Part shown: positions 3,079-39,701 of the stretch, piece by piece
Position numbering within the stretch: the stretch's first letter is position 1
How the letters are laid out: every line of letters starts with the position of its first letter
IMG/VR virus record: IMGVR_UViG_3300045988_055374
Length of the DNA stretch: 39,701 nt
Reading direction: 5' to 3' (one strand)
Origin: a virus
The notes under the pieces: model-generated
Seen by the model: only the letters and a program-made list of their open reading frames with translations
Told to the model about the DNA's origin: nothing
Database searches by the model: none
Program-made: the position numbers and the translations under genes

Positions 3079-3134
3079 TCCGTACTTCCTTTCCGTTGAT
3101 ATATAAGGCTTTTTCCGGTTTGGTTTAACTATAT

Positions 3135-3174
3135 CCATCAGTCATGCGCGGTTGAATCCGCGCATTGATGATGG
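3135..3174. other. Candidate attP: 40-bp imperfect palindrome immediately downstream of the serine integrase
   Basis: CCATCAGTCATGCGCGG-TTGAAT-CCGCGCATTGATGATGG. The two 17-nt arms match at 14/17 positions. No T-run follows on either strand. Confidence 0.35.
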
Positions 3175-3193
3175 AAATGGTAGATACAAAAAA

Positions 3194-4846
3194 TCAGGCC
3201 TTTAATATAACATCAAGCACGATCTCCGGCGAAGTCCAGTTTCCACCTGTATTCAGCGGCGACTTGTGGCGGGTGCGCTTCTGCTCCTTGTCATAATAGC
3301 GCACCTGCTGACTGCGTATTCTTTGCGGTGCTTCCCGATGATATTCAATGCGATCAATGCAGGCTTTCAGGAGCCTGTTTTTTGTTTCCGCGTCCACATC
3401 GTGACCGTTTAGGGCGTTAAGCGCTTCGGTAAACTGTGCGATTTTTTCTTCATAATTGACAGGTTCAGGCATGGATTCGTAAGCCCTGCAAAGTGCCTGT
3501 CTGACATCCTCTTTTTCCTTCAATAGCTTTTCATTGAGCTGCTGGAAGATATGCTGGGGCATCCGCTTTGCCGGGTCGGGATCGGCTTGCGCTTCCCATT
3601 GTGCAAGCTCTTTTTCTTCAAGTTCTTTCTGCTTGGTTTCCAGGTTTTTGATAAGCCGCATGTGCAGCTTGACGGAATCGCCCTCATTGTTTTTTAGGCG
3701 CACTTCAAAATCCTTAATGCAATCGCTCAAAATCACCTTTACGCGATCCTCTATTTCCGTATAAAGACAGGAGCCTGTTCTACAATGGGTTTGTCCATCG
3801 CACAGAAGGCGCGGGGCCGCGTCCCGGTTTTTGTATGTCCGCAGAGACATTGCGCGGCCACACTTGCACCACAACAGACCGGCAAACGGATTTCTGATTT
3901 TTGTGTTTGGCTTCTGCCGGGTGTTCTTCCCTTTTTTGGCTTGTGCTGCATTAAAAAGTTCTTCGGGAATAATGGCTTCATGCTTCCCATCATAGATCAG
4001 ATATTCGCCCACCTTTGCAACAGGTCGGGTTTTCTTGAACTCCCCTTCTTCAACTATGGTCATTGTCTTTCTGTGATTCCACTTGACCTTGCCTATATAG
4101 TGAATATTTTGCAGCATTTTGGTCACGGCATTTGCTGACCAATACTCCCCTTTCGGCGGCTTAATTCCCATTGCATCAAATTTTTTGCAGATATTTGTGC
4201 ATCCCATGTCTTTATTGACATAGAGATCAAACATCATGCGCACAACATCTGCTTCTTCTTTATTCGGAACGAGGATAGGGCACTTCCGTTTCCCTTCTGT
4301 GACAAAGGTTTTGTCATAACCGTATGGCGCAGTATTTCCTACATAGTTTCCCTGACTTACGGACAGCAGGCGGCCCCGGTTCAGAATCTTCTTCGTATAT
4401 TCCAGGTAGTCATTTCCGCGCTTCAGTTCGCGTTCAAAAGCGTCCCAGTCATATTCATCCCGTAGGTCATAAATGCGCTGTGGCGTGATTACAAGGGTGT
4501 TGGTGTGCTTCAGCAGCTTCATCAGGCGGCCTATATCCTCCAGGTCACCACGGGTCAGACGCTGCGGCTCTACCACGGCAACGGCCTTGTATCGCGGCGA
4601 TTCGATAAGGCGCAGGACGCGGTTGATCTCCGGGCGCTCTGCTATGGTCTCCCCGGACACCACTTCCCTGTATTTGTTTTCTTCCGGCACGACAGCGCCG
4701 AGATGCTGCTCTGCCCATTCGTCCAGCATGGCTTCATGTTTTGACAGCACTTCTTCAACAGTCAGCAGCGGATCATCTGACCGTGACTTTCTTAAATAGT
4801 CAATGACTTCTTCGGGCTTGAAATCTATCTTCGGTTGATAATACAA
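3194..4846 (-). CDS. int: Large serine recombinase (phage integrase)
   Basis: N-terminal resolvase motif YLRKSRSD, a recombinase domain, the Cys-rich zinc ribbon CKCGR...C..C, and a long C-terminal coiled coil. TTG start. 550 aa. Confidence 0.9.
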   Translation of the reverse strand: MYYQPKIDFKPEEVIDYLRKSRSDDPLLTVEEVLSKHEAMLDEWAEQHLGAVVPEENKYREVVSGETIAERPEINRVLRLIESPRYKAVAVVEPQRLTRGDLEDIGRLMKLLKHTNTLVITPQRIYDLRDEYDWDAFERELKRGNDYLEYTKKILNRGRLLSVSQGNYVGNTAPYGYDKTFVTEGKRKCPILVPNKEEADVVRMMFDLYVNKDMGCTNICKKFDAMGIKPPKGEYWSANAVTKMLQNIHYIGKVKWNHRKTMTIVEEGEFKKTRPVAKVGEYLIYDGKHEAIIPEELFNAAQAKKGKNTRQKPNTKIRNPFAGLLWCKCGRAMSLRTYKNRDAAPRLLCDGQTHCRTGSCLYTEIEDRVKVILSDCIKDFEVRLKNNEGDSVKLHMRLIKNLETKQKELEEKELAQWEAQADPDPAKRMPQHIFQQLNEKLLKEKEDVRQALCRAYESMPEPVNYEEKIAQFTEALNALNGHDVDAETKNRLLKACIDRIEYHREAPQRIRSQQVRYYDKEQKRTRHKSPLNTGGNWTSPEIVLDVILKA

Positions 4847-6950: not shown

Positions 6951-7040
6951 AGCCGAAACGGCCTGAAAGGCCGTCTGCCGGGGATAGTCTCCCGACACTG
7001 ACGATGGCAGACTAATATACATAAGAAAGGAATGATGTAA

Positions 7041-21796: not shown

Positions 21797-22012
21797 ATGA
21801 AAAGATGTTGGAAGGACTGGATCAAGAAGGCTGGTATCAGAGCGCTGAAAACCGTTGCGCAGACTGCGGTTGCAACCATCGGCACCAGCGCGGTGCTGAG
21901 TGAAGTAAACTGGATCATGGTGGGCAGCGCTTCCCTGCTGTCCGGTGTGCTGTCTCTGCTGACTTCGCTGGCCGGTATTCCCGAGGAATGCGAGGTTGAA
22001 AGCAATGCCTAA
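21797..22012 (+). CDS. Holin (two TM segments)
   Basis: 71 aa. AGIRALKTVAQTAVATIG and MVGSASLLSGVLSLLTSLAG helices. It overlaps the start of the endolysin. Confidence 0.7.
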   Translation: MKRCWKDWIKKAGIRALKTVAQTAVATIGTSAVLSEVNWIMVGSASLLSGVLSLLTSLAGIPEECEVESNA

Positions 22013-22862
22013 AGTATTTCTTTCCCCCAGCAACCAGTACGATAACCGCTATGCCTACGGTGACACCACCGAGGGCGTACAGTGCGGCAAGATCGCCGAG
22101 GCCTGCAAGGCGGCCTTGGAGCGCAGCGGCGTGACTGTGAAGCTGATGCACGATGAATCCATGCAGGAGAAGTGCGCGGCTTCCAACGCCTTCGGTGCCG
22201 ATCTCCATGTGCCCATCCACACCAACGCCTTTAACGGCACGGTGAGCGGCACCCGGATGTTCTACTACGCCGAGGGCGGGGAAGGTCAGAAGGCTTGTCA
22301 GGCAATTTTTGCCCGGCTGGCCCCGGTCACCCCCGGCACCAGTGAGAATATCCGGGCAGACGCTTCTCTCTACGAGGTGCGGGTGCCTGCCGCCCCTACG
22401 GCCTACATCGAGTGCGAGTTCCACGACAACCCCACCGCGTCTAAGTGGATCGTGGAGAATACCGGGCTTATCGGCGAGACCATCGCCCGGGGCATCTGCG
22501 ACTACTTCGGCGTGACCTTCAAGGGGAAGGAGCAGGCCGCGCCCGCTAAGTCCGTGGACGAGGTTGCCCGGGAGGTGATCCGCGGCGAGTGGGGCAATGG
22601 CTCCGACCGCCGCCAGCGCCTGGAGGCCGCAGGGTACGACTACGACACCGTACAGGATCGCGTGAACGCTATCCTGACGGGCGATGAACCGGAGCAGCCC
22701 GCGCCTGCCGAGCCGGTAGAGCCCACTCCCGAGCCGGAGCAGCCTGCCACCGATAAGCTCTACCGCGTCCAGGTGGGTGCCTTCGCCAACCGCGAAAACG
22801 CGGAAAAGATGCTGAAGCGGCTGACGGATTCCGGATTTGCCGGTTATATCAGAGCTGATTAA
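22005..22862 (+). CDS. Endolysin: N-acetylmuramoyl-L-alanine amidase (Amidase_3-like) + Cpl-7-type repeat + SPOR domain
   Basis: FLSPSNQ...HTNA...ECEFHDN amidase pattern. VIRGEWGNGSDRRQRLEAAGYDYDTVQDRVN is Cpl-7/CW_7-like. YRVQVGAFANRENAEKMLKRL is SPOR. Confidence 0.85.
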   Translation: MPKVFLSPSNQYDNRYAYGDTTEGVQCGKIAEACKAALERSGVTVKLMHDESMQEKCAASNAFGADLHVPIHTNAFNGTVSGTRMFYYAEGGEGQKACQAIFARLAPVTPGTSENIRADASLYEVRVPAAPTAYIECEFHDNPTASKWIVENTGLIGETIARGICDYFGVTFKGKEQAAPAKSVDEVAREVIRGEWGNGSDRRQRLEAAGYDYDTVQDRVNAILTGDEPEQPAPAEPVEPTPEPEQPATDKLYRVQVGAFANRENAEKMLKRLTDSGFAGYIRAD

Positions 22863-26399: not shown

Positions 26400-26987
26400 A
26401 TGAGCAAAGAGGGCAAGACCGGCGTATCTGCCAATACCCCCAAGAATATCATGTTCGGGGCTGGTACGATCCACAAGGGTCTGAAGTATACCAGCAACGC
26501 ATGGAACTTTGACAGCACCATTGTTGGTGCCACTTCCGGCGGCTCCAAGCTGTCCATCGTGCCGGAGATTACCAACATCGAGGTTGACGGCGCACTGGTT
26601 AAGGCCAAGGGGCTGACCGTCAAGACCGGCGAAACGGCCAGCATGGAGATCAACTTCATTGAGCTAACCAAGGACATCATCAAAACCGCCACGATCGGCA
26701 CAGACGGCACATCCGATGATGCAACAAACTATGATGTGATCGAATCCAAGGCGAATATTGCCACGGGCGATTATTGGGAAAACATCGCCTTTGTCGGCAA
26801 GACGCTGGAAGGCAAGAACATCATTGCCATTATGGACAATGCGCTTTGTACTTCCGGCTTTGAGCAGGAAGGCAAGAACAAGGAAGGCGCTGTCGGCAAG
26901 TACACATTCGAGTGCCACGCAGACCTGACCAGCGACCTGGACAAGCTGCCTTGGCATATCTACTACCCGAAGGCATCCGAAATCTGA
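26400..26987 (+). CDS. Major tail (tube) protein
   Basis: 195 aa, upstream of the G/GT chaperones, followed by a strong hairpin terminator. Confidence 0.8.
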   Translation: MSKEGKTGVSANTPKNIMFGAGTIHKGLKYTSNAWNFDSTIVGATSGGSKLSIVPEITNIEVDGALVKAKGLTVKTGETASMEINFIELTKDIIKTATIGTDGTSDDATNYDVIESKANIATGDYWENIAFVGKTLEGKNIIAIMDNALCTSGFEQEGKNKEGAVGKYTFECHADLTSDLDKLPWHIYYPKASEI

Positions 26988-27034: not shown

Positions 27035-27073
27035 CATTAAATGCAAAAATAATTGAAAGTGTGGTTATATAAA

Positions 27074-27511
27074 ATGCCTGAAAACATTGAAAAGACCTAT
27101 GAACTGCGCAGTCTGGAAGCTGATGACCTGTTTATCATGGTCGGCATCATCAGCAAAATCGGTGTCAAGGAATTCAAGGCTTGCTTTGAATCCAATGATG
27201 TGAAGGACGCTATCAAAGCCATGTTTAATCAGAAGGGCAATGCTGACGATGACGGCGAAAAGGCAGACGCTGACGATGACGGCTTTGTTTCCATTGGCAT
27301 TTCCGTTGCGCTGGACATCGCTGCAATCCTGATGGCGAACATCGGCAAGTGCAAGAATGACATCTATGCGCTGCTGGCCAATCTGTCCGGCATGAAAGAA
27401 AAGGAAATTGCGAAGCTGCCTATCAAGACCTTCACAAGCATGGTCGTTGACCTTGTGAAGAAAAAGGAGTTTGCAGATTTTTTTCAGGAAGCTGTAAAGT
27501 TGTTCAAGTAG
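27074..27511 (+). CDS. Tail assembly chaperone G
   Basis: Acidic protein between the major tail and tape measure genes, with a slippery T-run near its 3' end. Confidence 0.75.
   Translation: MPENIEKTYELRSLEADDLFIMVGIISKIGVKEFKACFESNDVKDAIKAMFNQKGNADDDGEKADADDDGFVSIGISVALDIAAILMANIGKCKNDIYALLANLSGMKEKEIAKLPIKTFTSMVVDLVKKKEFADFFQEAVKLFK
27478..27484 (+). promoter_or_regulatory. -1 programmed ribosomal frameshift site (T7 run, gaT TTT TTT Cag)
   Basis: Checked codon by codon: the -1 frame entered at 27484 is the frame of ORF 27559..27828 and is open throughout. Confidence 0.7.
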
Positions 27512-27828
27512 GCGACATTCAATTCTTCGATATTCTGTTTCAGCGGTATGCAAATCCAATGATTTTGTTGGATCAGATGGCAAAGACCGGGCGGCTGTAT
27601 GAGTTCATCAGCGCGGTTGTCCGCATACGCAACGAGGAACAGGAAGAAAAGGTCATGTGGGAATACTGGCTGCACAAGGATTTTGAGCGCTCCTATCCTG
27701 AATTTCTTAACGCAGCAGGTGGAAACAGTACCACGCAGGCCGAGCCGGAAACAACCAGCAAGCAGGAGCTGACAGAGATTGTCAAGCAATCTATGAAAAT
27801 AGCATCATTCGTGCCACAAGAGGAATGA
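27484..27828 (+). CDS. T part of the G-T frameshift chaperone fusion
   Basis: No convincing independent RBS for 27559. The frame is continuous from the slippery site. Confidence 0.65.
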   Translation, partial: SGSCKVVQVGDIQFFDILFQRYANPMILLDQMAKTGRLYEFISAVVRIRNEEQEEKVMWEYWLHKDFERSYPEFLNAAGGNSTTQAEPETTSKQELTEIVKQSMKIASFVPQEE

Positions 27829-27872: not shown

Positions 27873-29612
27873 ATGGAACTTTTCAAGCTGTTAGGCACAA
27901 TCGCCGTTGATAACGCACAGGCGAAGCAGGCCATTGACGAAACTGCATCAACAGCAGATAAGGGAAGCAAGAAAACGGATTCTTCCTTTAGGAAAATCGG
28001 TGAATCGGCACTGAAAATCGGAAAGGCTGTTTTTACTGCCGGTGCTGCACTTGGCGGCGCGTGGATAGCAGCTATTGAGGGTTCCAGGGAATATAGGACA
28101 GAAATGGGCAAGCTGGACACGGCTTTTGTCACAAATGGCCATTCCTCCGAAGCGGCAAAGAAAACATACCAGGATTTACAGGCCGTTTTGGGTGATACGG
28201 ATGTATCTGTTGAAGCTGCAAACCATTTGGCTGTCATGACCGACAACGAAAAGGATTTGCAGACCTGGACGGACATCTGCACCGGCGTTTTTGCAACATT
28301 CGGCGACAGTTTACCCATCGAGGGCTTGACGGAAGCGGCCAACGAAACGGCAAAGGTCGGCGAAGTCACCGGGCCATTGGCAGACGCTTTGAATTGGGCC
28401 GGAATATCCGAAGATGCATTCAATGAAAAACTTGCCAAGTGCTCCAATGAACAGGAGCGGCAAAGGCTTATTATGGACACTCTGAACGGGACTTACAAGA
28501 AAGCGTCCGAACAGTACAAGGAAACCAATGCCGATGTCATAGCGGCGAATAGGGCCAACGAGAAGCTGACAAGCGCCTTTGCAGAATTGGGGCGTGTTGG
28601 TGAACCGATTTTGACCGCTATCAAGAATAAGACTGCTGACATGGTGGCCGCTGCTGCTCCCCTGCTTCAATCCTTTATCACGAAAATAAAGGACATGATT
28701 AAGTGGTTCAAGCAAAACAAAAACACCGTGCAGGCGTGGGCGGCTGGCATCCTTGCCGCCACGGTCACAGTGTCCGGGTTTGTTCTTGTGCTGAAGTGGG
28801 GCAGCATTATGAGCAAGGCAACCACCGCCCTAAAGCTGGTCACAGGCGGCGTGAAGGCTCTGAATTTGGCCATGAAGGCAAATATAATCGGCCTGGTCGT
28901 GTCTCTTATCATCGGCCTTGTGGCGGCCTTCGTGTACCTTTGGAAGAACAATGAAGGATTCCGCAACTTTTGGCTGAAGATGTGGGAAAAGATCAAGTCC
29001 GCCACTTCCTCCGCTGTCAAGTGGATCAAGAGCAAGTTCAACGATCTGAAGGATGTTGTTTCAAGGGTCAGAAACACATTCGGCAGTATCAAGGACGCTA
29101 TTGCTGACAAGATTGATGGTGCGCGGGACGCTGTAAAAAAAGCCGTTGATAAGATTAAGGGCTTTTTCCCATTGAGTGTTGGCAAGATTTTTACAAATTT
29201 GAAAGTCCCGAAAATCACTGTCAGCGGCGGCAAAGCACCCTTTGGCATTGCTGGCAAGGGCAAGAAGCCCAGCTTTGATGTCAAATGGAACGCTGAAGGC
29301 GGTATTCTTGACCGGCCCACCATCTTTGGCAGCATCGGAAACACGCTGCTGGGCGGCGGCGAAGCCGGGAAAGAAGCCATTGCGCCCATTGACACGCTTC
29401 TTGACTATGTACGCGCTGCTGTCAGCGCAGAAAACGAAGGAATCAGAAAGACGCTGATTGAGCAAAACCAAATCCTGATTGACTTTTTGGCCCGGTCTAT
29501 GCCACACGGCGTTATGCTGGATTCCGGCGCACTGGTTGGGGAGCTGACACCGGCGATTGATATTCAGTTGTCGGACAGATTGAGAAACACACAAAGAGGA
29601 AACACACGATAG
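27873..29612 (+). CDS. Tape measure protein 1 (579 aa, complete)
   Basis: RBS agggaggg. Core GDSLPIEGLTEAANETAKVG...LADALNWAG, two TM helices, and a C-terminal GGILDRPTIFG...GEAGKEAIAPI motif typical of TMP ends. Confidence 0.85.
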   Translation: MELFKLLGTIAVDNAQAKQAIDETASTADKGSKKTDSSFRKIGESALKIGKAVFTAGAALGGAWIAAIEGSREYRTEMGKLDTAFVTNGHSSEAAKKTYQDLQAVLGDTDVSVEAANHLAVMTDNEKDLQTWTDICTGVFATFGDSLPIEGLTEAANETAKVGEVTGPLADALNWAGISEDAFNEKLAKCSNEQERQRLIMDTLNGTYKKASEQYKETNADVIAANRANEKLTSAFAELGRVGEPILTAIKNKTADMVAAAAPLLQSFITKIKDMIKWFKQNKNTVQAWAAGILAATVTVSGFVLVLKWGSIMSKATTALKLVTGGVKALNLAMKANIIGLVVSLIIGLVAAFVYLWKNNEGFRNFWLKMWEKIKSATSSAVKWIKSKFNDLKDVVSRVRNTFGSIKDAIADKIDGARDAVKKAVDKIKGFFPLSVGKIFTNLKVPKITVSGGKAPFGIAGKGKKPSFDVKWNAEGGILDRPTIFGSIGNTLLGGGEAGKEAIAPIDTLLDYVRAAVSAENEGIRKTLIEQNQILIDFLARSMPHGVMLDSGALVGELTPAIDIQLSDRLRNTQRGNTR

Positions 29613-29646
29613 AAGGCTGCTTTCCGGTGGCCTTCTTTTATTTTAT
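29611..29646 (+). terminator. Intrinsic terminator between the two tape measure genes
   Basis: AGAAGGC-loop-GCCTTCT followed by TTTTATTTTAT, starting at the TMP-1 stop codon. Confidence 0.65.
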
Positions 29647-29672
29647 CTTCACAGAAAGTGGGTGAAGGTCAC

Positions 29673-31367
29673 TTGGAAATTTTTAAGCTACTTGGCAAAA
29701 TTGCTATTTCCGGGTCGGATGAAGCAAAAAACGAAATCAATGAAACCACAGAACACGCAGAGCGGAAAGGCTCTAAGCTTTTAAGCACAATGGCGAAAAT
29801 CGGCACCGCCGCCATTGCTGCGGGTGGTGCTGCTGTTGTAGCTATTGGCAAACAGGCTTTGTCATCGTATGCGGACTATGAGCAGCTTGTAGGCGGTGTT
29901 GATACGCTTTTCAAGGATAGTTCCGCTACGGTTCAAGAATATGCCGCTAACGCATATAAGACTGCTGGATTGTCTGCTAATGAGTATATGGAGACGGTAA
30001 CGGGCTTTTCTGCGTCTCTATTGCAATCGCTTGGTGGTGACACAGAAGCGGCGGCAAAAATGGCTGATGTTGCCATTACGGATATGTCCGACAACGCAAA
30101 TAAAATGGGTACGGACATGGCATCTATCCAAAATGCTTATCAGGGATTTGCCAAGCAGAACTATACCATGCTGGATAACCTGAAGCTTGGCTATGGCGGC
30201 ACAAAAGAGGAAATGCAGCGTCTTATAGACGATGCAAACGAACTAAATGCCGCGCAGGGCAATTACACGAATTACACCATTGAAAGCTATGCGGATATTG
30301 TCAGCGCAATCCATGATGTGCAGACAGAAATGGACATCACTGGTACCACCGCAAAAGAAGCCAGCACCACCATACAAGGATCTGTAAACTCCATGAAAAG
30401 CGCATGGAAAAATATGCTTGTCGGCATTGCTGACGAAAATGCAAACTTTGAATCGCTGACAAGCACCTTCGTTGACAGCCTTGTTACTGTTGGTGCAAAT
30501 ATCATTCCACGCATAGATGTCATTATTCAGGGGCTTACACAGCTTATCACAGAAGCGTCCCAGACAATCATTCCGTTAGCTGTGCAGATTTTACTTGAAA
30601 ACCTGCCGAGCATTGTTGCCGCAGGCATGGATTTAATCATGGCGCTTGTGAACGGCATCCTTGACAATATTGACATGCTGATTGACTGTGTGATTGATAT
30701 GGTTGATGTGATAGTTGATAAGCTGATTGATAATCTGCCGAAACTGATCGATGGTGGAATCAGGCTGATTGCTGCACTTGCGAACGGGCTGATCCGTGCC
30801 ATACCGAATTTGGTATCAAAAATCCCGCAAATCATTTCGGCTATCGTGAAGGGACTTGTCAGCGGCATTCCTTCGATTCTTGATGTCGGAAAGAACATCG
30901 TTGAGGGACTTTGGAGCGGTATCAAAAATATGGGTTCATGGATTACTGGAAAAGTAAAAGACTTTTTCGGTGGAATTGTAAGCGGGGTTAAAAACTTCTT
31001 GGGCATTCACTCCCCGTCTAAGGTCTTTGCCGGGATCGGTGGCTTCATGGCTGAAGGTTTGGGCGAAGGCTTTGACGATCAATTCAAGTCCGTAAAAAAG
31101 GACATCGAAGGCAACATGAGCTTTGACGCTGGCACTATTACGGCAGATGCAAACATCAGCAGAAACTATACAAGTGGCTCTTACGGAGCAGCAAGCACAA
31201 GCGGTGGCAGCGATTCCGGCAGAATTGTAATGCTGCTGGAACAGTACCTGCCTATGTTGGCAAATATGAAAGTCATTATGGACAGTGGCCAGGTTGTCGG
31301 TTTGCTTGCCCCAGGCATGGATGAAGAACTGGCCAAAATCAATGCAAGGAGGGCGAGGGCCGTATGA
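29673..31367 (+). CDS. Tape measure protein 2 (about 564 aa, complete, different TMP type)
   Basis: The N-terminus LEIFKLLGKIAISG parallels TMP-1's MELFKLLGTIAVDN (TTG at 29673, or GTG at 29658). Core NAYKTAGLSANEYMETVTGFSASLLQSLGGD...NAYQGFAKQNYTMLDNLKLGYGGTKEEM. GIHSPSKVF motif near the C-terminus. Confidence 0.8.
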   Translation: MEIFKLLGKIAISGSDEAKNEINETTEHAERKGSKLLSTMAKIGTAAIAAGGAAVVAIGKQALSSYADYEQLVGGVDTLFKDSSATVQEYAANAYKTAGLSANEYMETVTGFSASLLQSLGGDTEAAAKMADVAITDMSDNANKMGTDMASIQNAYQGFAKQNYTMLDNLKLGYGGTKEEMQRLIDDANELNAAQGNYTNYTIESYADIVSAIHDVQTEMDITGTTAKEASTTIQGSVNSMKSAWKNMLVGIADENANFESLTSTFVDSLVTVGANIIPRIDVIIQGLTQLITEASQTIIPLAVQILLENLPSIVAAGMDLIMALVNGILDNIDMLIDCVIDMVDVIVDKLIDNLPKLIDGGIRLIAALANGLIRAIPNLVSKIPQIISAIVKGLVSGIPSILDVGKNIVEGLWSGIKNMGSWITGKVKDFFGGIVSGVKNFLGIHSPSKVFAGIGGFMAEGLGEGFDDQFKSVKKDIEGNMSFDAGTITADANISRNYTSGSYGAASTSGGSDSGRIVMLLEQYLPMLANMKVIMDSGQVVGLLAPGMDEELAKINARRARAV

Positions 31368-32029
31368 TGGGAAAAGTATTTTTTGACGGAAAAGACACCT
31401 ACACAGAATATGGCCTGCTGCTTGCAAGCAAGTCCATTTCTCTTCCGGAAGTCCGCACGAATATGATTGATGTTCCGGGCCGGGACGGTCTGATTGACGC
31501 TTCCGAAGTGCTGACCGGCGAAGTCACCTATAAGAACCGCACCATTACGCTGAAGCTGACTGGCGTGGACACGGTGAGTGGCAAGAAATGGCCCGCCACG
31601 ATTTCTGATTTCTGCAACAAAGTCCACGGAAAGCGCGTGAAAGTGACCTTCCCCGAGGACACCGCCCATTTTTACAGTGGGCGGTGTTCTGTTGGGCAAG
31701 TGGAGCTTGTCAAAATGATGCAGACCATCCCGGTCACAGTCAACTGCGACCCGTGGAAATACAAGAACGCAAAAACCACGGTTTCCCGCTCTGACCTGGG
31801 CACGGCCTATAAACAGCTTTCGCTTCCGAATGAAAGCCGTCCGGTGATTCCCGCCATCACGGTGGCCCAGGACACCACCTTGCTTTGGGGCAGCAGCACA
31901 ATCAACATCAGCGCGGGAGATCATATTTTGCCCGCTATCCGTCTTGCGGCTGGCAACAACATTCTGAAAGCCAAAGTTGCAAGCGGCACCGGCAGTATCA
32001 CAGTTACATACCAGGAGGCGAGCCTGTAA
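31364..32029 (+). CDS. Distal tail protein Dit-1
   Basis: Siphovirus Dit pattern: N-terminal FDGKDTYTEYGLLL, then CDPWKYK, ending TVTYQEASL. Paralog of 37484..38131. Confidence 0.8.
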   Translation: MMGKVFFDGKDTYTEYGLLLASKSISLPEVRTNMIDVPGRDGLIDASEVLTGEVTYKNRTITLKLTGVDTVSGKKWPATISDFCNKVHGKRVKVTFPEDTAHFYSGRCSVGQVELVKMMQTIPVTVNCDPWKYKNAKTTVSRSDLGTAYKQLSLPNESRPVIPAITVAQDTTLLWGSSTINISAGDHILPAIRLAAGNNILKAKVASGTGSITVTYQEASL

Positions 32030-35000
32030 TGTACCAACTCAAATATAAAAACTATATCCTGTATGACCCGCGCCTTGCGGATGAAAAACTAATCATCCGT
32101 GACCCCTCTGTGAAGCTGGCGGTCAGCAAGGCCGGGGAAATGTCCTTTACGGTGGACGCAGAACATCCCTATTTAAGCAATCTGCGCCGCATGAGCGGCC
32201 TTGTGGAGCTGCTGGACGGCACTTTCCCCATATATAGGGGAAGAATCACCGGAGACACAAAAGACTTCTACGGGGCGCACAAAATCGAAACAGAGGGCAT
32301 TATGGCGGTGCTGAATGACAGCATCATTCCACCGTTCAACTTCCCAGAGGACTTTACGGAGGACACTTCCTATAAGGCCGCCGCCGCAAGCGGGAATGTG
32401 GTGGAGTTTTTCTTCCGCTGGATTCTGTCACAGCACAATTCGCAGGTGACCGCAGAGCAGCAGATCAAGCCCGGCGTGGTCACCGTGTCCGACCCGAACA
32501 ATTACATTACCCGCAGCTCTGAGGAGTACGCCACGGCGATGACCACTATTTCCGATAAGCTGTTCAAATCTTCCCTGGGTGGGAATCTGCTGATCCGTTA
32601 CGAGAATGACGGCAATTATTTGGACTATTACGCCGCGCTGCCGCTGACAAACACGCAGACGGTGGAATTTGCCGAAAATCTTCTTGACCTGTCCAGCGAG
32701 ACGGACGGTGCGGACATTTACACCGCTATTCTTCCGGAGGGCAAGGACGGCCTGACCATCGGAAATCTGCCGGACGGTGACTTGACGGATGACCTTGTGA
32801 AGTCCGGGAAAATCATCTATAGCAAGTCCGGCGTGGCTACATATGGGCGCATTACCCGGCATATCAAATGGGGCGATGTGACCGTTGACACCAACCTTCG
32901 GACGAAAGCAAAGGCAGCCTTGGCTGACAATGGCCTGTCCATGCCGGAGACCATCACCTGCAAGGCGGTTGATTTGGGCTGGCAAGAGGGCATCCAGCAT
33001 TTCCGGGTGGGCAGAATGACCGCCCTGGTCAGTACGCCCCACGGCTACAGCGCGTCCTATCCGCTGATGGAGCTTGCCCCGGATATTCTTGACCCCGGCA
33101 ACACACAGATCACGCTGGGCGCGACCCGGCGCACATTCACCGGCTCACAGATCGATGCAGTGCGGAAGGCCGAGGAAAGCGCGGGGCAAGTCCGTACCGA
33201 CCTCAACAAGAAAATCGAGGACATCGAACTTACCCCCGGCCCGGCTGGCCCTGCCGGGGCGGACGGCAAGGACGGAAAAGACGGCACCAACGGAACCAAC
33301 GGCTTGTCTGTGTGGATCACCTACCATGACGGCACGGCTACCCCGGCCACGCCCACAGGAAACGGTACTCTGAACGGCTGGCATACGGATTTGACCGCCG
33401 CCGTTGTTTGGATGTCGCAGAAGGTAGCGGCATCGGCCACGGCTGGCGCATGGGGCGCACCCATCCGTCTGCTGGGTGAAAAGGGTGAGCAGGGCATACA
33501 GGGCATTCCCGGCGAGAAAGGCGACCCCGGAGAGCAGGGGCCGCAGGGAGTGAAAGGCGATACCGGCGCAACAGGGCCTCAAGGTGAGCAAGGCCCCCAG
33601 GGAGAAAAAGGAGACACGGGAGCCAAGGGAGACCCCGGCGCAAAGGGCGATCCTGGCAAGGATGGAACGAACGGCAAGGACGGCGTGTCCCCCACGGTGA
33701 GCCTTACCAAGTCCGGCAATACCACCACCATCACCATCACCGACAAAAACGGGACACATACGCAGACCGTCAAGGACGGCACCAACGGCACACCCGGCAA
33801 GCCCGGCGCGGACGGAAAAACGCCGTATTTGCACTTGAAATACAGCAATGACGGCGGCGCGACCTTTACGACCAACGAGGGCGAGACCCCCGGCGCATAC
33901 ATCGGCACTTACACCGATTTCACCGAAGCGGACAGTACTTTGGTCAGCTCCTACACCTGGGCGAAAATCAAGGGTGAGCAGGGCGCACAGGGAAACCCCG
34001 GCAAGGACGGCAGCCCCGGGGCCACCGGCCCCCAAGGCCCACAAGGTGAGAAGGGTGCAACGGGGGCTACCGGCCCACAAGGAGAAAAGGGTGATGTCGG
34101 CCCGCAAGGTCCGCAGGGCGTTAAGGGCGCAGACGGCAAGACCTATTTCACCTGGATAAAATACGCCGATTCGCCCACCTCCGGGATGTCCGATAATCCC
34201 ACCGGGAAGAAGTATATCGGCATCGCATACAATAAACTGACGGCCACGGAAAGCACAGAATATGCGGATTATACCTGGTCGCTTATCAAGGGTGATAAAG
34301 GCGATAAGGGCGACAAGGGAGCCACCGGTGATACCGGCCCACAGGGTGAGCAGGGTGTCAAGGGTGATACCGGGGCCACAGGCCCCCAGGGGCCGCAGGG
34401 GGAAAAGGGCAACACCGGCCCCACCGGCAACGGCATCAAGTCCATCACCTATTACTACGCCAGGACGGCTACCCAAACGGCCCCTGCTGCCGCTGCTATC
34501 ACTTCCACTACCATGCCCGCCCTGGATGCTACGAACAAGTATCTGTGGCAGAAAGAGGTTATTGCCTACACCAACGGCACCAATCAGACCACCGTTCTGC
34601 TATTGGCCGTGTACGGCGACAAGGGCAGCAAGGGTGACAAGGGAGCCACTGGCGATACCGGCCCCCAAGGCCCACAAGGTGAGAAGGGTGCAACGGGGGC
34701 CACCGGCCCGCAAGGAGAAAAAGGGGCAACTGGCCCCCAGGGCGTAAGCGTCACCGCCACCACAGTGGAATATTATCTTTCCGCTTCCGGGACAGAGCTT
34801 TCCGGAGGCACATGGCAGGCCACAGCCCCGACTATCACGGACGGCATGTATCTCTGGGGGCGCACGAAGATCACCTATTCCAACGGTAAAACGGCCTACA
34901 CCGGCGCATACTGCATCAGTAAGGCCATGACCGAGAGCGCCGAACCGATTGTTAGCGAGACCCGCACGGCGGTGACAAAGCTGACCCAGGATGTGGACAG

Positions 35001-35472
35001 TTTCAAGGCCACGGTTTCCGAGACCTACACCGAAAAATCCAACTTCAACGAGTTCAAGCAAAAAACGGAATCCGACCTAACCGCCAACAGTACGGCCATA
35101 GAGCAGCGGTATACCGAGATCAAGACCGTGGAGCAGCAAGTCCTTGGCGTAGATGGCAAGGTCACGGATGTGCAGAAAAAGGTCACAGAGACGGCGGGAT
35201 ATATCCGTACCGGCAAGGTGGCTGAGGATGAATCCGGGAATCCGATTTACGGCGTGAAAATCGGGCAAACCGATACGGCTGGCAATTATAACGCCTTTGC
35301 CCAGTTCACAGCCGGGCGCATTTCGTTTTTCGATGAAACCGGGAAGGAGATTAGCCACTTCGCGGGCAAAGATTTCTACATCGACAGCGGTATCATCGTC
35401 CAAAACCTGAATCTCGGTGGCTATGAGCTGCGCCGGAATAAGGGCCTTGGCTTCAAATGGATAGGAGGCTGA
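32029..35472 (+). CDS. Tail-associated protein Tal-1 (1147 aa) with an internal collagen-like/beta-domain expansion
   Basis: ATG at 32029 overlaps the Dit stop, with RBS ggagg. The N-terminal ~390 aa are homologous to Tal-2. There are six G-X-Y tracts. The C-terminus is homologous to the Tal-2 C-terminus. Confidence 0.85.
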   Translation: MYQLKYKNYILYDPRLADEKLIIRDPSVKLAVSKAGEMSFTVDAEHPYLSNLRRMSGLVELLDGTFPIYRGRITGDTKDFYGAHKIETEGIMAVLNDSIIPPFNFPEDFTEDTSYKAAAASGNVVEFFFRWILSQHNSQVTAEQQIKPGVVTVSDPNNYITRSSEEYATAMTTISDKLFKSSLGGNLLIRYENDGNYLDYYAALPLTNTQTVEFAENLLDLSSETDGADIYTAILPEGKDGLTIGNLPDGDLTDDLVKSGKIIYSKSGVATYGRITRHIKWGDVTVDTNLRTKAKAALADNGLSMPETITCKAVDLGWQEGIQHFRVGRMTALVSTPHGYSASYPLMELAPDILDPGNTQITLGATRRTFTGSQIDAVRKAEESAGQVRTDLNKKIEDIELTPGPAGPAGADGKDGKDGTNGTNGLSVWITYHDGTATPATPTGNGTLNGWHTDLTAAVVWMSQKVAASATAGAWGAPIRLLGEKGEQGIQGIPGEKGDPGEQGPQGVKGDTGATGPQGEQGPQGEKGDTGAKGDPGAKGDPGKDGTNGKDGVSPTVSLTKSGNTTTITITDKNGTHTQTVKDGTNGTPGKPGADGKTPYLHLKYSNDGGATFTTNEGETPGAYIGTYTDFTEADSTLVSSYTWAKIKGEQGAQGNPGKDGSPGATGPQGPQGEKGATGATGPQGEKGDVGPQGPQGVKGADGKTYFTWIKYADSPTSGMSDNPTGKKYIGIAYNKLTATESTEYADYTWSLIKGDKGDKGDKGATGDTGPQGEQGVKGDTGATGPQGPQGEKGNTGPTGNGIKSITYYYARTATQTAPAAAAITSTTMPALDATNKYLWQKEVIAYTNGTNQTTVLLLAVYGDKGSKGDKGATGDTGPQGPQGEKGATGATGPQGEKGATGPQGVSVTATTVEYYLSASGTELSGGTWQATAPTITDGMYLWGRTKITYSNGKTAYTGAYCISKAMTESAEPIVSETRTAVTKLTQDVDSFKATVSETYTEKSNFNEFKQKTESDLTANSTAIEQRYTEIKTVEQQVLGVDGKVTDVQKKVTETAGYIRTGKVAEDESGNPIYGVKIGQTDTAGNYNAFAQFTAGRISFFDETGKEISHFAGKDFYIDSGIIVQNLNLGGYELRRNKGLGFKWIGG
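34024..34090 (+). repeat. 67-nt near-identical direct repeat, copy A (partner 34657..34723)
   Basis: 43 nt are identical, followed by 3 mismatches in the remaining 24 nt. The offset is 633 nt (211 codons, in frame). Confidence 0.85.
34657..34723 (+). repeat. 67-nt near-identical direct repeat, copy B
   Basis: accggcccccaaggcccacaaggtgagaagggtgcaacggggg... is shared with 34024..34090. Confidence 0.85.
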
Positions 35473-35476
35473 TAGA

Positions 35477-37444
35477 ATGGCAACAAGCGGAACCGTAAAA
35501 ACAAACACAAAATATGGCTCCTATTTTTGGGTCAAGTGGGAAATCAGCGGCAGTCAGGACATAGCCGGGAATAAGACTACCATATCCTGGTCTTGTGGTC
35601 TGCACCCCGAGGAGCAGTATTACACAAACGCCATAAAAATGGGTGCGGTGGTCATTAACGGTCAAACTGTGTATTCCGGTGGCACATATTCCGACATCAC
35701 GGATTACAAGGATCGCACCTTTGCCTCCGGCACACTGGATATTTCCCACAACAATGACGGCAGCAAGACCTTCACTGTTTCTGCCTTTTCCGGCTGGCTT
35801 TACGGAAACGGAGATTATACCGCTTCGGCGGAGAGTTTTGCCCTGCCTGCCATACCCCGGGCGGCTACCATCACATCCGCGCCCAACTTTACGGATGTGG
35901 ACAACCCGGCCATTGTCTATGCCAATCCGGCGGGATCGGCGGTTGCTGCGCTGGATGTGTGCATTTCCCTGACCGGTTCGGCATCGGATATTGCTTACCG
36001 AGCCGTCAGCACCAGCGGCGGCAGCTACACCTTCCAGCTTACCAATGCGGAGCGGGCCGTGCTGCGCAACAACACGACCTTAACGCGAAAAGTCGTGTTC
36101 CTGCTGCGTACCAAAATCGGCAGCACCTATTACTACGACACCGCAGAAAGGACATTTAGCGTCACCAATAATGCGGCCACCCGGCCCAGTGAAGCTATCG
36201 CTGTGGCCCCTGTCAGTGCCCTGTCTGCGCCGTTTAATGCCCTGTATATCCAGGGCAGAACACAGGCCAAAATCACGCACACGGCCAGCGGCAAGTTCGG
36301 CGCGACCATAAAGCAATATTCCGCCTCCGTAGAGGGTAAAGCCTATTCCGGGAAAACAGTCACCAGTGACGCACTGCAAACGCCGGGCGTGCTGACCATC
36401 ACCGGCACGGCAACGGACAGCAGAGGGTTTTCCACTACAGCATCTAAAACCGTCACGGTGCTGGCGTACAATACGCCCTCTGTGGTGCGTAACGGCAACA
36501 CGGGAAAATTTGTGTGCGCACGGTCTACCTCTGACGGAACAATAAGCGAAGATGGTACTGCGCTTTATGTGGGGTGTTCCAAGTCCTTTTCCTCTTTGGC
36601 CGGAAACAATAAATGCACCTTGCGTCTGCGCTATGCGGCAGAAGGCGGCGGTTGGTCAAGTTGGATCACGCTTTCGGCAGAATCTTCCGGAAACGATTAC
36701 GCAGGCGTGGTGCCCGGTGTCACCCTATCGGTATCGGTAGTATATACCATCGAGATTCAGGCGGTGGACAAGCTGGGTGAGAGCGGGTCGGTGGAAACGA
36801 GAATCCCCACATCCGAGATGACCTTTCACTTGGGCGAGAACGGTAAAGCCGTGGGCATTGGGCGGTACGCCAGCGAGAGCGGAGAAAAGCGGCTGGATGT
36901 GGCCTGGGACGCTCATTTTGAAAAGGGACTGCAAGTCAGCGGTGCCACAACGCTGGGCGGAAACCTAACGGGCAAATATCTGACCGGCACATGGCTACAA
37001 ACCACGGCGACCACAGACCTGGGCAAAACGCCGCCAAAGGTGGCAGTGCTGGATAATGCCGGTTTGGTGTATTACCGGACACCGGCGGAGCTGCGGGCCG
37101 ATTTGGGCTATGGGGACTATGTGTTAGAACAGGGCACCAGCGGTATTTGGACTTACCGCAAATGGGCCAGCGGTGTGGCGGAGTGTTGGGGGCAGCCATC
37201 TAAGAGTGTAGCATCATCCGGCACATTCCTTGGTGCGGATGCATTTTCCACATACTTTTCGCTGCCTGCCGGTCTTTTTACAAGTGTGACGGAAGCCAAT
37301 GTGAATCCAAAGGTCGGAAGCGGATACGCAATCCCTGCATACATAAATGCGACCAATGCATCAATCGGTGTTGACGCGCTATCAAATAACAGCGGTACGC
37401 AGACCTTTTCCGCGCATATCAGCGTAAAAGGGAAATGGAAATAA
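35477..37444 (+). CDS. Tail fibre / receptor-binding protein 1 (DUF859-like architecture), paralog of 163..1941
   Basis: 655 aa. RBS ataggagg. Shares N-terminal and central motifs with the paralog and has an unrelated-looking C-terminal ~200 aa. Confidence 0.7.
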   Translation: MATSGTVKTNTKYGSYFWVKWEISGSQDIAGNKTTISWSCGLHPEEQYYTNAIKMGAVVINGQTVYSGGTYSDITDYKDRTFASGTLDISHNNDGSKTFTVSAFSGWLYGNGDYTASAESFALPAIPRAATITSAPNFTDVDNPAIVYANPAGSAVAALDVCISLTGSASDIAYRAVSTSGGSYTFQLTNAERAVLRNNTTLTRKVVFLLRTKIGSTYYYDTAERTFSVTNNAATRPSEAIAVAPVSALSAPFNALYIQGRTQAKITHTASGKFGATIKQYSASVEGKAYSGKTVTSDALQTPGVLTITGTATDSRGFSTTASKTVTVLAYNTPSVVRNGNTGKFVCARSTSDGTISEDGTALYVGCSKSFSSLAGNNKCTLRLRYAAEGGGWSSWITLSAESSGNDYAGVVPGVTLSVSVVYTIEIQAVDKLGESGSVETRIPTSEMTFHLGENGKAVGIGRYASESGEKRLDVAWDAHFEKGLQVSGATTLGGNLTGKYLTGTWLQTTATTDLGKTPPKVAVLDNAGLVYYRTPAELRADLGYGDYVLEQGTSGIWTYRKWASGVAECWGQPSKSVASSGTFLGADAFSTYFSLPAGLFTSVTEANVNPKVGSGYAIPAYINATNASIGVDALSNNSGTQTFSAHISVKGKWK

Positions 37445-37483
37445 AAACTGACATAAAAATCAAAACAAGAAAGGCGGTGCAAA

Positions 37484-38131
37484 ATGAAAGGGGTTACTTT
37501 TGGAACATATCACAGCTATGATGATTTTAGCTTGATACTGACTTCAAAAGAGATTGCAGCCCCGAAAACAAAGACAGTGAAAATTGATGTGGAAGGTGCA
37601 GACGGGTCTATTGATCTGACGGATTATTTCGGTGAGCCGAAATATGAGGATTGCACCCACAAATTTCAGTTTTCAACCATCGTGCCACAAAGTGAATTCC
37701 TTACACTGTTTTCAACCATCAAAAACGCAATACATGGTAAAAAAATGCGGATCGTCCTTGATGATGATCCGCTTTTTTACTATGTCGGAAGATGCTTTGT
37801 ATCTGCGTTTACCAGCGAAAAGAACATCGGCAAATTTGGCGTAGATTGTGATTGTGAGCCGTGGAAGTACAAGGCAGCAAAAACGGTTATCACGCAGGCA
37901 GTCAGCGGCGAAAGCACCCTTTCCCTGCCCAATCTCCGCAAGCGTGTTGTGCCGGAAGTGGTGATTAACGCCGAAACCCCTCTGCACATTGTATACGACA
38001 CATACAATATTTGGGATTTGGGCAGCGGCAGCTATACCCTTCCGGAACTGGAATTGAAGGCCGGAAACAATAGCGTTTCCGTGACGGGAGAAGGAACCAT
38101 TTCCTTTTCTTATCAGGAAGCGGGGTTGTGA
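37484..38131 (+). CDS. Distal tail protein Dit-2
   Basis: CEPWKYK and the ending ISFSYQEAGL parallel Dit-1. 215 aa. Confidence 0.8.
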   Translation: MKGVTFGTYHSYDDFSLILTSKEIAAPKTKTVKIDVEGADGSIDLTDYFGEPKYEDCTHKFQFSTIVPQSEFLTLFSTIKNAIHGKKMRIVLDDDPLFYYVGRCFVSAFTSEKNIGKFGVDCDCEPWKYKAAKTVITQAVSGESTLSLPNLRKRVVPEVVINAETPLHIVYDTYNIWDLGSGSYTLPELELKAGNNSVSVTGEGTISFSYQEAGL

Positions 38132-38132
38132 T

Positions 38133-39701
38133 ATGTACAGGGTATATTGTGACGGCCTGACGCTGTATAACAGCAACCTGGAAAGCCTGAAAATATTCAG
38201 TCCTTCCGTGGAATTGGAGTTGAACAAGACCGGCAGCTTCTTATTCACAGTTTATCCCGATCATCCACAGTACAACGCCATTCAAAAGCTGCGGTCGATC
38301 ATCACGGTTTATCAGGATGACTATCTGATTTTCCGTGGGCGTGTCCTTGATGATGAAATCGGCTTCTACAATGAAAAGCGTGTTGTCTGCGAAGGTGAGC
38401 TTGCTTTCCTTCTGGACAGCGTACAAAGACCATACGACTATTCCGGGACAGTTGAAGGCTTCTTGAATCTGCTGGTAGATAACCACAACGCGCAGGTGGA
38501 AGAAGCAAAGTGGTTCACTGTCGGAAATGTCACGGTTACTGATCCGAATGATTATATCGCCCGTTCAAACATTGATTATGTTGATACATGGACAGAGCTG
38601 CAAAAGAAGCTGATTGACCTGCTGGGCGGCTATATCGTCATCCGGCATGAAGGCTATATCAACTATATTGACTATCTGCAAGACTTCACGCTGCTTTCTC
38701 CGCAGAAGATCACCTTCGGGAAGAATCTGCTTGACCTAAAGCGGATCAGGAAAGGCGCGGACATTGCAACGGCGCTAATCCCGCTGGGCGCAAAGCTGAA
38801 GGACGATGAAGGCAAGGACACCGACAACCGCCTGACTATTGCAGGTGTCAATGATGGCCTTGATTATATCGTTGACGAAGAATCCGCTGAAAAGTACGGC
38901 CTTATTTTCGCAACGCATACATGGGACGATGTTACAGAAGCGGCAAACCTGCTGACCAAAGCCAATGCACATTTGGCCAATCTTGTCAACCAGTCTGAAA
39001 CCATTGACCTGACGGCGGCTGACCTGGCCACCGTGAATGCTTCCTTCAGCAGCTTTCACCTTGGAACCTATGTCAAGGTGGAAAGCACGCCCCACGGAAT
39101 GAATCAGAATTTCCTTGTTTCAAAGCTGTCTTTGAAGCTGCTGGAGCCGGGAGCAAACAGGCTGACGCTTGGCGGGGTGTTTTTGGGTATTTCCGGGGCA
39201 CTGGCAGGCATTTCCGGGGCGCAGAGTGAAATTATACTGCAAATAGAAAATGCGTCCAAAACGGCTTCTGCGGCCATTTACAATGTGGAACAGAATTTGC
39301 TTGCGTCATTGCAGGTATCAGAAGAAAACATCAAATCAATCGTTGCGGAAAACTACTACCTGAAAGATCAGACGGACGCGCTTGTTTCCTCTGTTAGCAC
39401 AGAGATAGAGCAGACGAAGGAAAGCGTGGAAATCCAGTTCAACCAATTTAACGCCGACATTGAAGCGGTGGCGGCTGGAACGGACGCAGAGTTTGAAGAA
39501 ATCCGCAAATACATTCGGTTTGTAGACGGCTCCATTCTGCTGGGACAAGTCGGGAATGAACTGGAATTGAAAATCAGCAATGACCGCATATCCTTCCTTC
39601 AGGACGCTGTTGAAGTGGCTTATTTCTCCGACAATAAGCTGTATGTGACAGACGGCCATTTTCTCCATTCCCTTCAGCTTGGAAACTTTGCTTTCATTCC
39701 G
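38133..39701 (+). CDS. Tail-associated protein Tal-2, N-terminal 523 codons (open at the window end, finishes at 1..161; 536 aa in total)
   Basis: ATG at 38133 right after the Dit-2 stop. Homologous to the Tal-1 N-terminus (xYRGRI / IFRGRV, ...STPHG...). Absent from the ORF track because no stop falls inside the window. Confidence 0.8.
   Translation, partial: MYRVYCDGLTLYNSNLESLKIFSPSVELELNKTGSFLFTVYPDHPQYNAIQKLRSIITVYQDDYLIFRGRVLDDEIGFYNEKRVVCEGELAFLLDSVQRPYDYSGTVEGFLNLLVDNHNAQVEEAKWFTVGNVTVTDPNDYIARSNIDYVDTWTELQKKLIDLLGGYIVIRHEGYINYIDYLQDFTLLSPQKITFGKNLLDLKRIRKGADIATALIPLGAKLKDDEGKDTDNRLTIAGVNDGLDYIVDEESAEKYGLIFATHTWDDVTEAANLLTKANAHLANLVNQSETIDLTAADLATVNASFSSFHLGTYVKVESTPHGMNQNFLVSKLSLKLLEPGANRLTLGGVFLGISGALAGISGAQSEIILQIENASKTASAAIYNVEQNLLASLQVSEENIKSIVAENYYLKDQTDALVSSVSTEIEQTKESVEIQFNQFNADIEAVAAGTDAEFEEIRKYIRFVDGSILLGQVGNELELKISNDRISFLQDAVEVAYFSDNKLYVTDGHFLHSLQLGNFAFIP
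39583..39701. repeat. Terminal direct repeat, identical to 1..119
   Basis: Same 119-nt string as the window start. Confidence 0.95.

Follow-up and report, generated by a model that had tools for sequence, protein, structure and literature searches.

The IMG/VR virus record IMGVR_UViG_3300045988_055374, a stretch of 39,701 nucleotides hereafter called the window, is the genome of a temperate gut siphophage of ~39.6 kb. Its late operon contains two sets of tail-tip genes, each encoding a tape measure protein (TMP), a Dit, a Tal and a DUF859 fibre that is a candidate receptor-binding protein (RBP). The layout reads best as a TMP-Dit-Tal-RBP cassette (TMP-2, Dit-1, Tal-1 and RBP-1) nested between TMP-1 and the Dit that would be TMP-1's own (Dit-2, followed by Tal-2 and RBP-2). 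Comparison with the relatives indicates that this nested layout is an old architecture, present across the whole clade, in which the inner cassette has been replaced repeatedly. We propose that the two sets are alternative tip initiators, which would use a common tube, chaperone pair and head and would give rise to two virion populations; we put the chances of this proposal at about even.

Nested tail-tip genes in the late operon

The tail-tip region consists of ten open reading frames (ORFs) on the plus strand, in the order G/GT, TMP-1, terminator, TMP-2, Dit-1, Tal-1, RBP-1, Dit-2, Tal-2 and RBP-2, and their coordinates nearly coincide with those given by an earlier reading of the window from its letters alone (hereafter, the sequence-only reading). 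The tail assembly chaperone G (27053-27511; ENA start 27074, 145 aa; phrog_1021, E 3e-29) is extended in the -1 frame by T (27478-27828; phrog_1294, E 3e-10), which yields a G-T fusion of ~251 aa. The slippery run of seven T residues at 27478-27484 is read directly as GCA GAT TTT TTT CAG, and the -1 frame remains open across 27451-27828. This is the single chaperone pair for both tape measures, and it is located between the tube protein and TMP-1.

TMP-1 (27873-29612, 579 aa; PHROGs 58, 991 and 3981) follows the frameshifted G/T genes. TMP-2 (29673-31367, 564 aa; phrog_6900, 58, 991 and 3981) has no chaperone pair of its own and precedes Dit-1, the start of which overlaps the TMP-2 stop. The TMP-2 start is most likely the TTG at 29673 (MEIFKLLG), as in the ENA gene call; the longest ORF opens at GTG 29658. 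Dit-1 (31364-32029, 221 aa; phrog_33, E 4e-14) is followed by Tal-1 (32026-35472, 1148 aa), which begins with a gp27-like domain, continues as a long collagen-like/CFSR fibre and ends in a domain that Tal-2 also has, and then by the candidate receptor-binding fibre RBP-1 (35477-37444, 655 aa; PF05895; phrog_372, E 2e-53). The distal genes are Dit-2 (37484-38131, 215 aa; phrog_33, E 2e-13), Tal-2 (38133-39701, continuing to 161; 536 aa) and the candidate receptor-binding fibre RBP-2 (163-1941, 592 aa from ATG 163; PF05895). The sequence-only reading had let Tal-2 wrap into position 1 onward, and the run across the contig end is legitimate, because bases 1-119 repeat bases 39583-39701. The contig is thus of the circular type, with a unit genome of 39,582 bp, and the final 13 codons and the stop codon of Tal-2 lie beyond the repeat, at 120-161.

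Are the two TMPs complete, or are they two halves of one ruler? In phrog_3981 (584 positions), residues 15-443 of TMP-1 correspond to positions 5-424 and residues 19-449 of TMP-2 to positions 14-451, and phrog_58 and phrog_991 are likewise matched by both proteins in the same region. Since each of them matches the TMP profiles from end to end, over the same regions as the other, both TMPs are complete, as the earlier reading had judged, and the split TMP is ruled out: both proteins span the same N-to-C stretch. Pairwise BLASTP gives 28% identity across ~225-246 N-terminal residues (E 1e-6), and the final ~30 residues of the two proteins have the visible motif (V/I)M(L)DSGxxVGxLxPxxD in common. 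TMP-1 also weakly matches the 80alpha TMP gp57 in the PDB (E 0.002).

The other three pairs had been predicted to be homologous yet strongly diverged, with dissimilar RBP C-termini, and BLASTP bears this out with identities of 28-34%. Dit-1 and Dit-2 are 34% identical over their full length (E 7e-40); phrog_33 is the family of both, and each lies in the Dit position between a TMP and a Tal. Tal-1 and Tal-2 are 34% identical in their N-terminal ~365 aa (E 5e-50), and the identity falls to 21% in the C-terminal ~185 aa. Both exceed the gathering cut-off of PF06605 (Prophage_tail; 42.3 and 60.4 bits, respectively, against 31.3) and both match phrog_3558 (E 1e-77 and 5e-127). RBP-1 and RBP-2 are 28% identical over residues 1-488 (E 1e-24), while their C-terminal 120-170 aa cannot be aligned; their PF05895 (DUF859) scores are 54 and 203.7 bits, with a gathering cut-off of 28.8. 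Each is the last structural gene of its set, and the C-terminus of RBP-2 matches phrog_7127, "receptor binding tail protein". A PDB sequence search with Dit-2, Tal-2 and RBP-2 gave no meaningful match to solved structures.

Tal-1 contains ~570 aa of collagen-like repeats (PF01391 Collagen, E 3e-38; repeat families at 33246-34742), and therefore the central fibre would be long on one tip and short on the other. The Gly-X-Y array of Tal-1 differs in length among otherwise identical strains (1148 aa as compared to 1358 aa in L002/L003), so the length of the central fibre is variable. The C-terminal domain common to Tal-1 and Tal-2 suggests itself as a docking domain for the DUF859 fibre. It corresponds to Tal-2 residues ~398-532, and it forms a separate small ORF in Blautia phage NatCom_27009 (L075 17294-17848), directly upstream of the DUF859 fibre gene.

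How widespread is the nested layout? A scan of IMG/VR with TMP-1 yielded 67 loci of 47-100% identity from about 21 datasets, and the ten window proteins were mapped onto the TMP-1 loci by tblastn and locally iterated hidden Markov models. When three contigs from metagenome-assembled genomes (MAGs), ENA loci, GenBank and the window itself are included, 73 loci have DNA downstream of the TMP-1 homologue, and a second TMP-like ORF is present in all 73. In the loci long enough to show it, TMP-1 is followed by TMP-2, Dit, Tal, (fibres), Dit-2, Tal-2 and RBP-2. The same nested layout is found in L189 and L191, which were reached via Dit-2, and none of the loci examined has TMP-1 directly followed by Dit-2. 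As a control, we inspected the best 80 relatives of TMP-2: 77 reside in single-TMP phages and the other three belong to the TMP-1 clade, so the method does not produce a second TMP everywhere. The sequence-only reading had described a TMP-Dit-Tal-RBP cassette inserted between TMP-1 and its own Dit. The nested reading is supported, but a single insertion in one genome is not, since the nested layout is clade-wide and the inner cassette appears to have been replaced repeatedly.

A chimeric assembly, the concern raised along with that description, is ruled out by many independent assemblies with the same order. Exact-protein look-ups retrieve this gene order from ERZ28572026 scaffold_661 and ERZ27229779 k119_197293, which come from different assemblers and different samples and one of which encodes a Tal-1 of 1358 aa, and it is also present in GenBank MT835521.1, an unannotated metagenomic record. 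No cultured or annotated clade member was found in the GenBank phage set. The three MAG-binned phage contigs carry TMP-1 homologues under inconsistent taxon labels. The TMP-1 90%-identity cluster alone has 356 member sequences, on many ~40-kb contigs, and the lineage is common in human gut metagenomes.

Outer set and inner cassette across the relatives

Which TMP belongs to which Dit, Tal and RBP? Outside the clade, single-cassette relatives of both types exist, a search for which the earlier reading had proposed. MT836707.1 (L001) and the 39.7-kb phage L192 hold the inner type, with a single TMP (558 aa), a Dit, a Tal and a DUF859 fibre. L001 is 89% identical to the window in TMP-2 (from residue 60), 93% in Dit-1 and 84% in the N-terminal part of Tal-1, and the Dit of L192 falls in the cluster of at least 90% identity to which Dit-1 belongs, on a different backbone. 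The outer type is held by Blautia phage NatCom_27009, phage NatCom_34192 and Streptococcus phage Javan261, in which one TMP is directly followed by Dit-2-, Tal-2- and RBP-2-like genes. The C-termini of these three TMPs are 32-37% identical to TMP-1 residues ~304-579, as compared to just 20-22% for TMP-2 in this region, and the Tal-2-like proteins are 37-39% identical to Tal-2. Some ordinary long TMPs of single-TMP phages (phage nd12, NatCom_11578) contain the N-terminal core of TMP-1 as well. Because single-tip phages hold each combination alone, we infer that TMP-1 partners the distal Dit-2, Tal-2 and RBP-2 as an outer set, and that TMP-2 to RBP-1 form the inner cassette.

The two sets differ strikingly in their variability among the relatives. 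When Dit, Tal and TMP types are defined as clusters at 40% identity, the outer proteins fall into two clusters for Dit-2 (counted over 42 loci), one for Tal-2 and two for the TMP-1 C-terminus, as compared to 13 for the inner Dit, 10 for the inner Tal and 11 for the TMP-2 core. Where the inner proteins are too divergent for the window profiles, they nevertheless prove to be a Dit (phrog_33) and, after it, a minor tail protein of the Tal type (phrog_538), and in L059-L062 and L073 the inner set is reduced to a TMP, a short 140-aa Dit and a Tal. The inner Dit and Tal types are tightly linked (adjusted Rand index, ARI, 0.81). The length of TMP-1 is 575-589 aa in 72 of the 73 relatives, while that of complete TMP-2 ORFs varies between 538 and 1207 aa (median 622). 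The near-equal TMP lengths, from which the sequence-only reading had argued, are thus real in this genome but do not extend to the relatives, where a TMP-1 of ~579 aa accompanies a TMP-2 of 538-1207 aa. These comparisons indicate that TMP-1, Dit-2, Tal-2 and RBP-2 travel with the backbone, and that the inner TMP-Dit-Tal(-fibre) cassette is swapped repeatedly. Such free swapping of the inner set argues against a tight physical coupling of the two sets.

The first ~36-59 aa of TMP-2 are linked to the backbone, as judged from two pairs of genomes. In L005, TMP-2 residues 1-~36 are identical to those of the window while the remaining TMP-2 is 46% identical, and between the window and L001 residues 1-59 are replaced. 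The N-terminal motif (M/L)E(L/I)FKLLG, which the earlier reading had pointed out in both TMPs, is indeed present; it is a generic TMP motif without covariation within genomes. An N-terminal adaptation of TMP-2 to TMP-1 is ruled out, as the N-termini are no more alike within genomes than in shuffled pairs and the motif also occurs in some single-tip TMPs.

The reading frames of both sets are intact and constrained. Between dual-tip genomes, the dN/dS ratios calculated by the Nei-Gojobori method are 0.07-0.14 for TMP-1, Dit-2 and Tal-2, and for the inner genes (TMP-2, Dit and Tal) they are 0.08-0.24, the latter range including a recent pair with a dS of ~0.08. Both tail-tip sets are under purifying selection, and part of the divergence of the inner set may have accumulated while its genes resided in single-tip phages. 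TMP-2 is broken into two ORFs in L040 (11762-13406) and L055 (11801-13631), two of the 67 complete cases, and these breaks could be a frameshift or an assembly error.

The terminator noted by the sequence-only reading between TMP-1 and TMP-2 is a terminator-like hairpin at 29611-29636 plus a T-tract, the whole element occupying 29611-29646, and its position is kept in the relatives. In most of them, a hairpin with a T-run lies directly 3' of the TMP-1 stop, and the stem sequences differ. After TMP-1, 21 of 37 distinct sequences are terminator-like, while the stops of other tail genes give 8 of 314 and shuffled sequences 3.4%; the mean folding energy is -13.3 versus -6.6 kcal/mol. The hairpin is conserved by position. 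Downstream of it, the genes are closely spaced and probably share one transcript; just a short spacer with a ribosome-binding site separates Dit-2 from the inner cassette, and no separate promoter was found for either set in the late operon.

The cassette borders at 29.6 kb and 37.45 kb revealed no inverted repeats. An invertible host-range switch of the Mu G / P1 C type is ruled out, as flanking inverted repeats are lacking, the genes lie on one strand and the sole recombinase is a 550-aa integrase. For the template and variable repeats of a diversity-generating retroelement (DGR), the direct-repeat search gave just the Tal-1 collagen-like repeats, the terminal overlap and one 30-nt chance pair; no search was aimed at a reverse transcriptase. 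In some relatives, the TMP-1/TMP-2 junction contains reverse-strand moron ORFs (L042 11768-12568; L064 2583-3095 and 2325-2579; all minus), which include proteins with signal-peptide or lipoprotein-like N-termini. The junction is therefore an insertion hot spot. A second chaperone pair was looked for in the longer TMP-1/TMP-2 spacers of the relatives and was not found; these spacers hold the reverse-strand moron ORFs.

Tip initiation and rival explanations

How might two tail tips be built from one operon? A siphophage tail starts from a complex of the TMP trimer, held by G/GT, with the Dit hexamer and the Tal trimer, on which the tube then polymerises, and the C-terminus of the TMP sits in its own Dit-Tal complex (lambda, SPP1, T5, 80alpha). 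The late operon of the window would contain two self-contained initiator modules, one nested inside the other: an outer module of TMP-1 with Dit-2, Tal-2 and RBP-2, and an inner module of TMP-2 with Dit-1, Tal-1 and RBP-1. Each TMP would seed its own Dit-Tal-RBP tip, and both tips would draw on the same G/GT, tube protein, terminator and heads. The two tips would assemble independently, and the infected cell would release two kinds of virion, differing in tip, in receptor specificity and possibly in the route of DNA entry, with no need of DNA rearrangement. The hairpin after TMP-1 may set the relative amounts of the two tips, and the inner slot would be a plug-in site, for which cassettes are traded with ordinary single-tip phages.

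In many relatives, the two kinds of virion would also differ in tail length. At 1.5 Å per residue, the predicted lengths are ~87 nm (579 aa) and 85 nm (564 aa) for the window, and 87 and 181 nm for an L073-like relative (582 and 1207 aa). If the two-tip reading is true, the members with unequal TMPs should give two tail lengths in one lysate.

Two alternative initiators are the most economical explanation, because each cassette has its own TMP, each is sufficient elsewhere and the inner one is swapped against a constant outer set. An extra Dit, Tal and RBP as mere accessory baseplate parts are disfavoured, since a TMP in each cassette would then be unnecessary. Several observations weigh against two alternative initiators. 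No clade member without the inner cassette was found; a simple deletion would leave a normal phage, and the universal presence of the cassette fits mutual dependence of the sets as well as selection for two tips. The single G/GT pair would have to serve two TMPs that are just 28% identical. The first 30 aa of TMP-1 and TMP-2 do not covary, the identity being 0.40 within genomes and 0.40 in shuffled pairs. The TMP-2 C-terminal type is weakly associated with the inner Dit type (ARI 0.15, with coarse clustering), and therefore a strict co-inheritance of TMP and Dit is not demonstrated. Finally, should the hairpin terminate transcription efficiently, Dit-2 and Tal-2, the presumed partners of TMP-1, would be cut off too.

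The main rival is a composite single tail, in which both sets would be built into every particle, for instance with one Dit ring stacked on another, with TMP bundles of mixed composition or with Tal and RBP in a second tier, and the result would be an unusually complex tip instead of two virion types. We regard this as unlikely. What speaks for it is that not one clade member devoid of the inner cassette was found; indeed, no member lacks either set. The tight packing and probable co-transcription of the genes past the hairpin suit a composite tail as well, and two Dit paralogs per tail are known in phages, either as two rings or as a hetero-hexamer (PMC13595954). In contrast, the inner Dit and Tal comprise at least 10 unrelated types against a constant outer set, which is hard to square with a specific interface, each set is the sole tip in other phages, and the length of TMP-2 varies twofold while that of TMP-1 is fixed. 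Moreover, we know of no way in which two gp27-like Tal trimers and two TMPs could share one tube end.

A second rival assigns infectious virions to one set only. The other set would then form headless tail-like killing particles, free tip complexes acting as decoys or enzymes, or a tip for a special condition or host state. The purifying selection on both sets is compatible with such a role, the conserved hairpin suggests differential expression, and the outer set is strikingly conserved while the inner is variable. F-type tailocins do derive from siphophage tails. However, both sets lie in one late operon in which no separate promoter was found, and with a common tube and common chaperones nothing visible bars either tail type from the heads. 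We consider this division of roles rather improbable.

Quite improbable, in our view, is non-adaptive redundancy, in which the inner cassette would be a tolerated or selfish passenger, left by recombination between prophages of the same host and of no use to the phage. In favour of this, tail-tip cassettes are readily mobile between phages, the TMP-1/TMP-2 junction also receives the reverse-strand morons, and TMP-2 is split in the two cases mentioned above. Against this stand ~8 kb, or 20% of the genome, kept in every member down to 47% TMP-1 identity, with intact reading frames and dN/dS ratios of 0.07-0.24. The inner cassette is repeatedly replaced and not lost, which argues for selection for an occupied slot. 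Lastly, a stitching in tandem of two strains' tail tips during assembly has a negligible chance: the window, a contig of the metagenome type, does have a k-mer overlap of 119 bp, but the same order recurs in the two ERZ assemblies, in more than 60 IMG/VR contigs and in MT835521, and the paralogs, being 28-34% identical, have no common k-mers for mis-joining.

Returning to the two alternative initiators, we further propose, with slightly less than even confidence, that the lineage is constitutively two-tipped: each burst would yield two tail morphotypes, one with the conserved tip and one with a tip from the refillable slot, from a single genome and without DNA rearrangement.

Genomic surroundings and known systems

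The remainder of the genome is that of a temperate siphophage, with a large serine recombinase, a portal, a MuF-like gene, holin and endolysin genes, scaffold and capsid genes and the tube protein. The major tail (tube) protein (26400-26987, 195 aa) lies upstream of chaperone G. The late operon is closed by a strong intrinsic terminator at 1946-1971 on the plus strand, with an 11-bp stem containing seven GC pairs and a T-rich tail. RBP-2 is directly followed by this terminator, without lysis genes in between. The holin and endolysin genes are instead located at 21797-22862, between the MuF-like gene and the scaffold and capsid genes, while their usual place is after the tail fibre genes; the endolysin has Amidase_3, CW_7 and SPOR domains, and the local GC content is 0.60, as compared to ~0.50. 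A type II hammerhead ribozyme (RF02276) is present at 6951-7016 on the plus strand, in the early, lysogeny-proximal region (55.5 bits with a gathering score of 37; E 6e-9). The Rfam search gave no match in the tail region, and the tRNA search of the genome found none.

The large serine recombinase/integrase (3194-4846, minus strand; 550 aa) has Resolvase and Recombinase domains. A degraded relative is integrated in a bacterial chromosome (L078 3877-15659 and L079; ENA k127_117875, 91.7 kb), within the Mn-catalase/CotJC spore-coat gene. The interrupted cotJC gene consists of 68-aa and 128-aa pieces and adjoins cotJA/cotJB, ffh and rpsP. Since this relative interrupts a spore-coat gene, the host is a spore-forming member of the Bacillota, and the phage probably inserts into the sporulation gene by means of the serine recombinase, with window ~3080-3193 adjoining the recombinase gene. 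The insertion into a sporulation gene is reminiscent of skin/SPbeta-type elements.

Host range is the central variable in phage ecology and phage therapy, and one-genome hedges of it are known in the form of fibre inversion, DGRs and several RBPs on one baseplate. Two whole initiator modules, one of them hot-swappable, would add a further strategy. If the two-tip reading is true, it would represent a new bet-hedging of host range, in which the two tails of many members would differ about twofold in length, and, with the TMP duplicated, defences directed at the TMP or at DNA entry could be evaded as well. It would further show that two different tape measures can make use of a single tube, chaperone pair and head set, and it would offer a natural chassis for engineered phages with an exchangeable second specificity. 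Full-text literature searches, the coverage of which is incomplete, found no published phage with two TMP-Dit-Tal modules, the nearest case being a pair of Dit paralogs within a single tail. The individual parts are ordinary; their clade-wide doubling, with one set nested in the other and the inner slot exchangeable, appears not to have been described before.

Each set of the window consists of the same families, in the same canonical order, as the TMP-Dit-Tal-RBP tip of the siphophages of Gram-positive hosts (SPP1, TP901-1, p2, 80alpha). The single-tip phages L001 and L192, and the Ca. Heliusvirales phages NatCom_27009 and NatCom_34192 together with Javan261, have the same cassette types as the window. 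Unlike the window, they have one TMP and one tip, and their lysis genes follow the fibre gene. Cassettes are exchanged as in ordinary siphophages, as the Dit-1 cluster of at least 90% identity is common to single-tip phages. The difference from ordinary modular exchange is that the incoming cassette has been added inside the resident one, and the doubled state is kept clade-wide.

In the multi-RBP or "branched" phages (SP6/K1-5, CBA120, phiK64-1, phi92; also P1, T-even and Sf14 with two fibre sets), one genome likewise provides broader or dual receptor recognition. These phages, however, have a single hub and a single TMP and mount several RBPs on a common baseplate or adaptor, whereas in the window each RBP is preceded by a Dit and a Tal of its own, and the TMP is present twice. 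Two Dit paralogs are combined in one tail as a hetero-hexamer in Nocturne116, and as two rings in other phages (PMC13595954). The Nocturne116-like phages thus also have two Dits, but these reside in the same particle, with one TMP and one tip and Tal; in the window, the doubling extends to the TMP and the Tal, and the inner set is freely variable. Finally, the Mu G segment with Gin and the P1 C segment with Cin also allow one genome to produce two virion types, as is proposed here for the window. In Mu and P1, an invertase acting on flanking inverted repeats switches only the fibre C-terminus and its chaperone, giving one type per cell. In contrast, the window has no flanking inverted repeats, and the whole TMP-Dit-Tal-RBP initiator is doubled on one strand.

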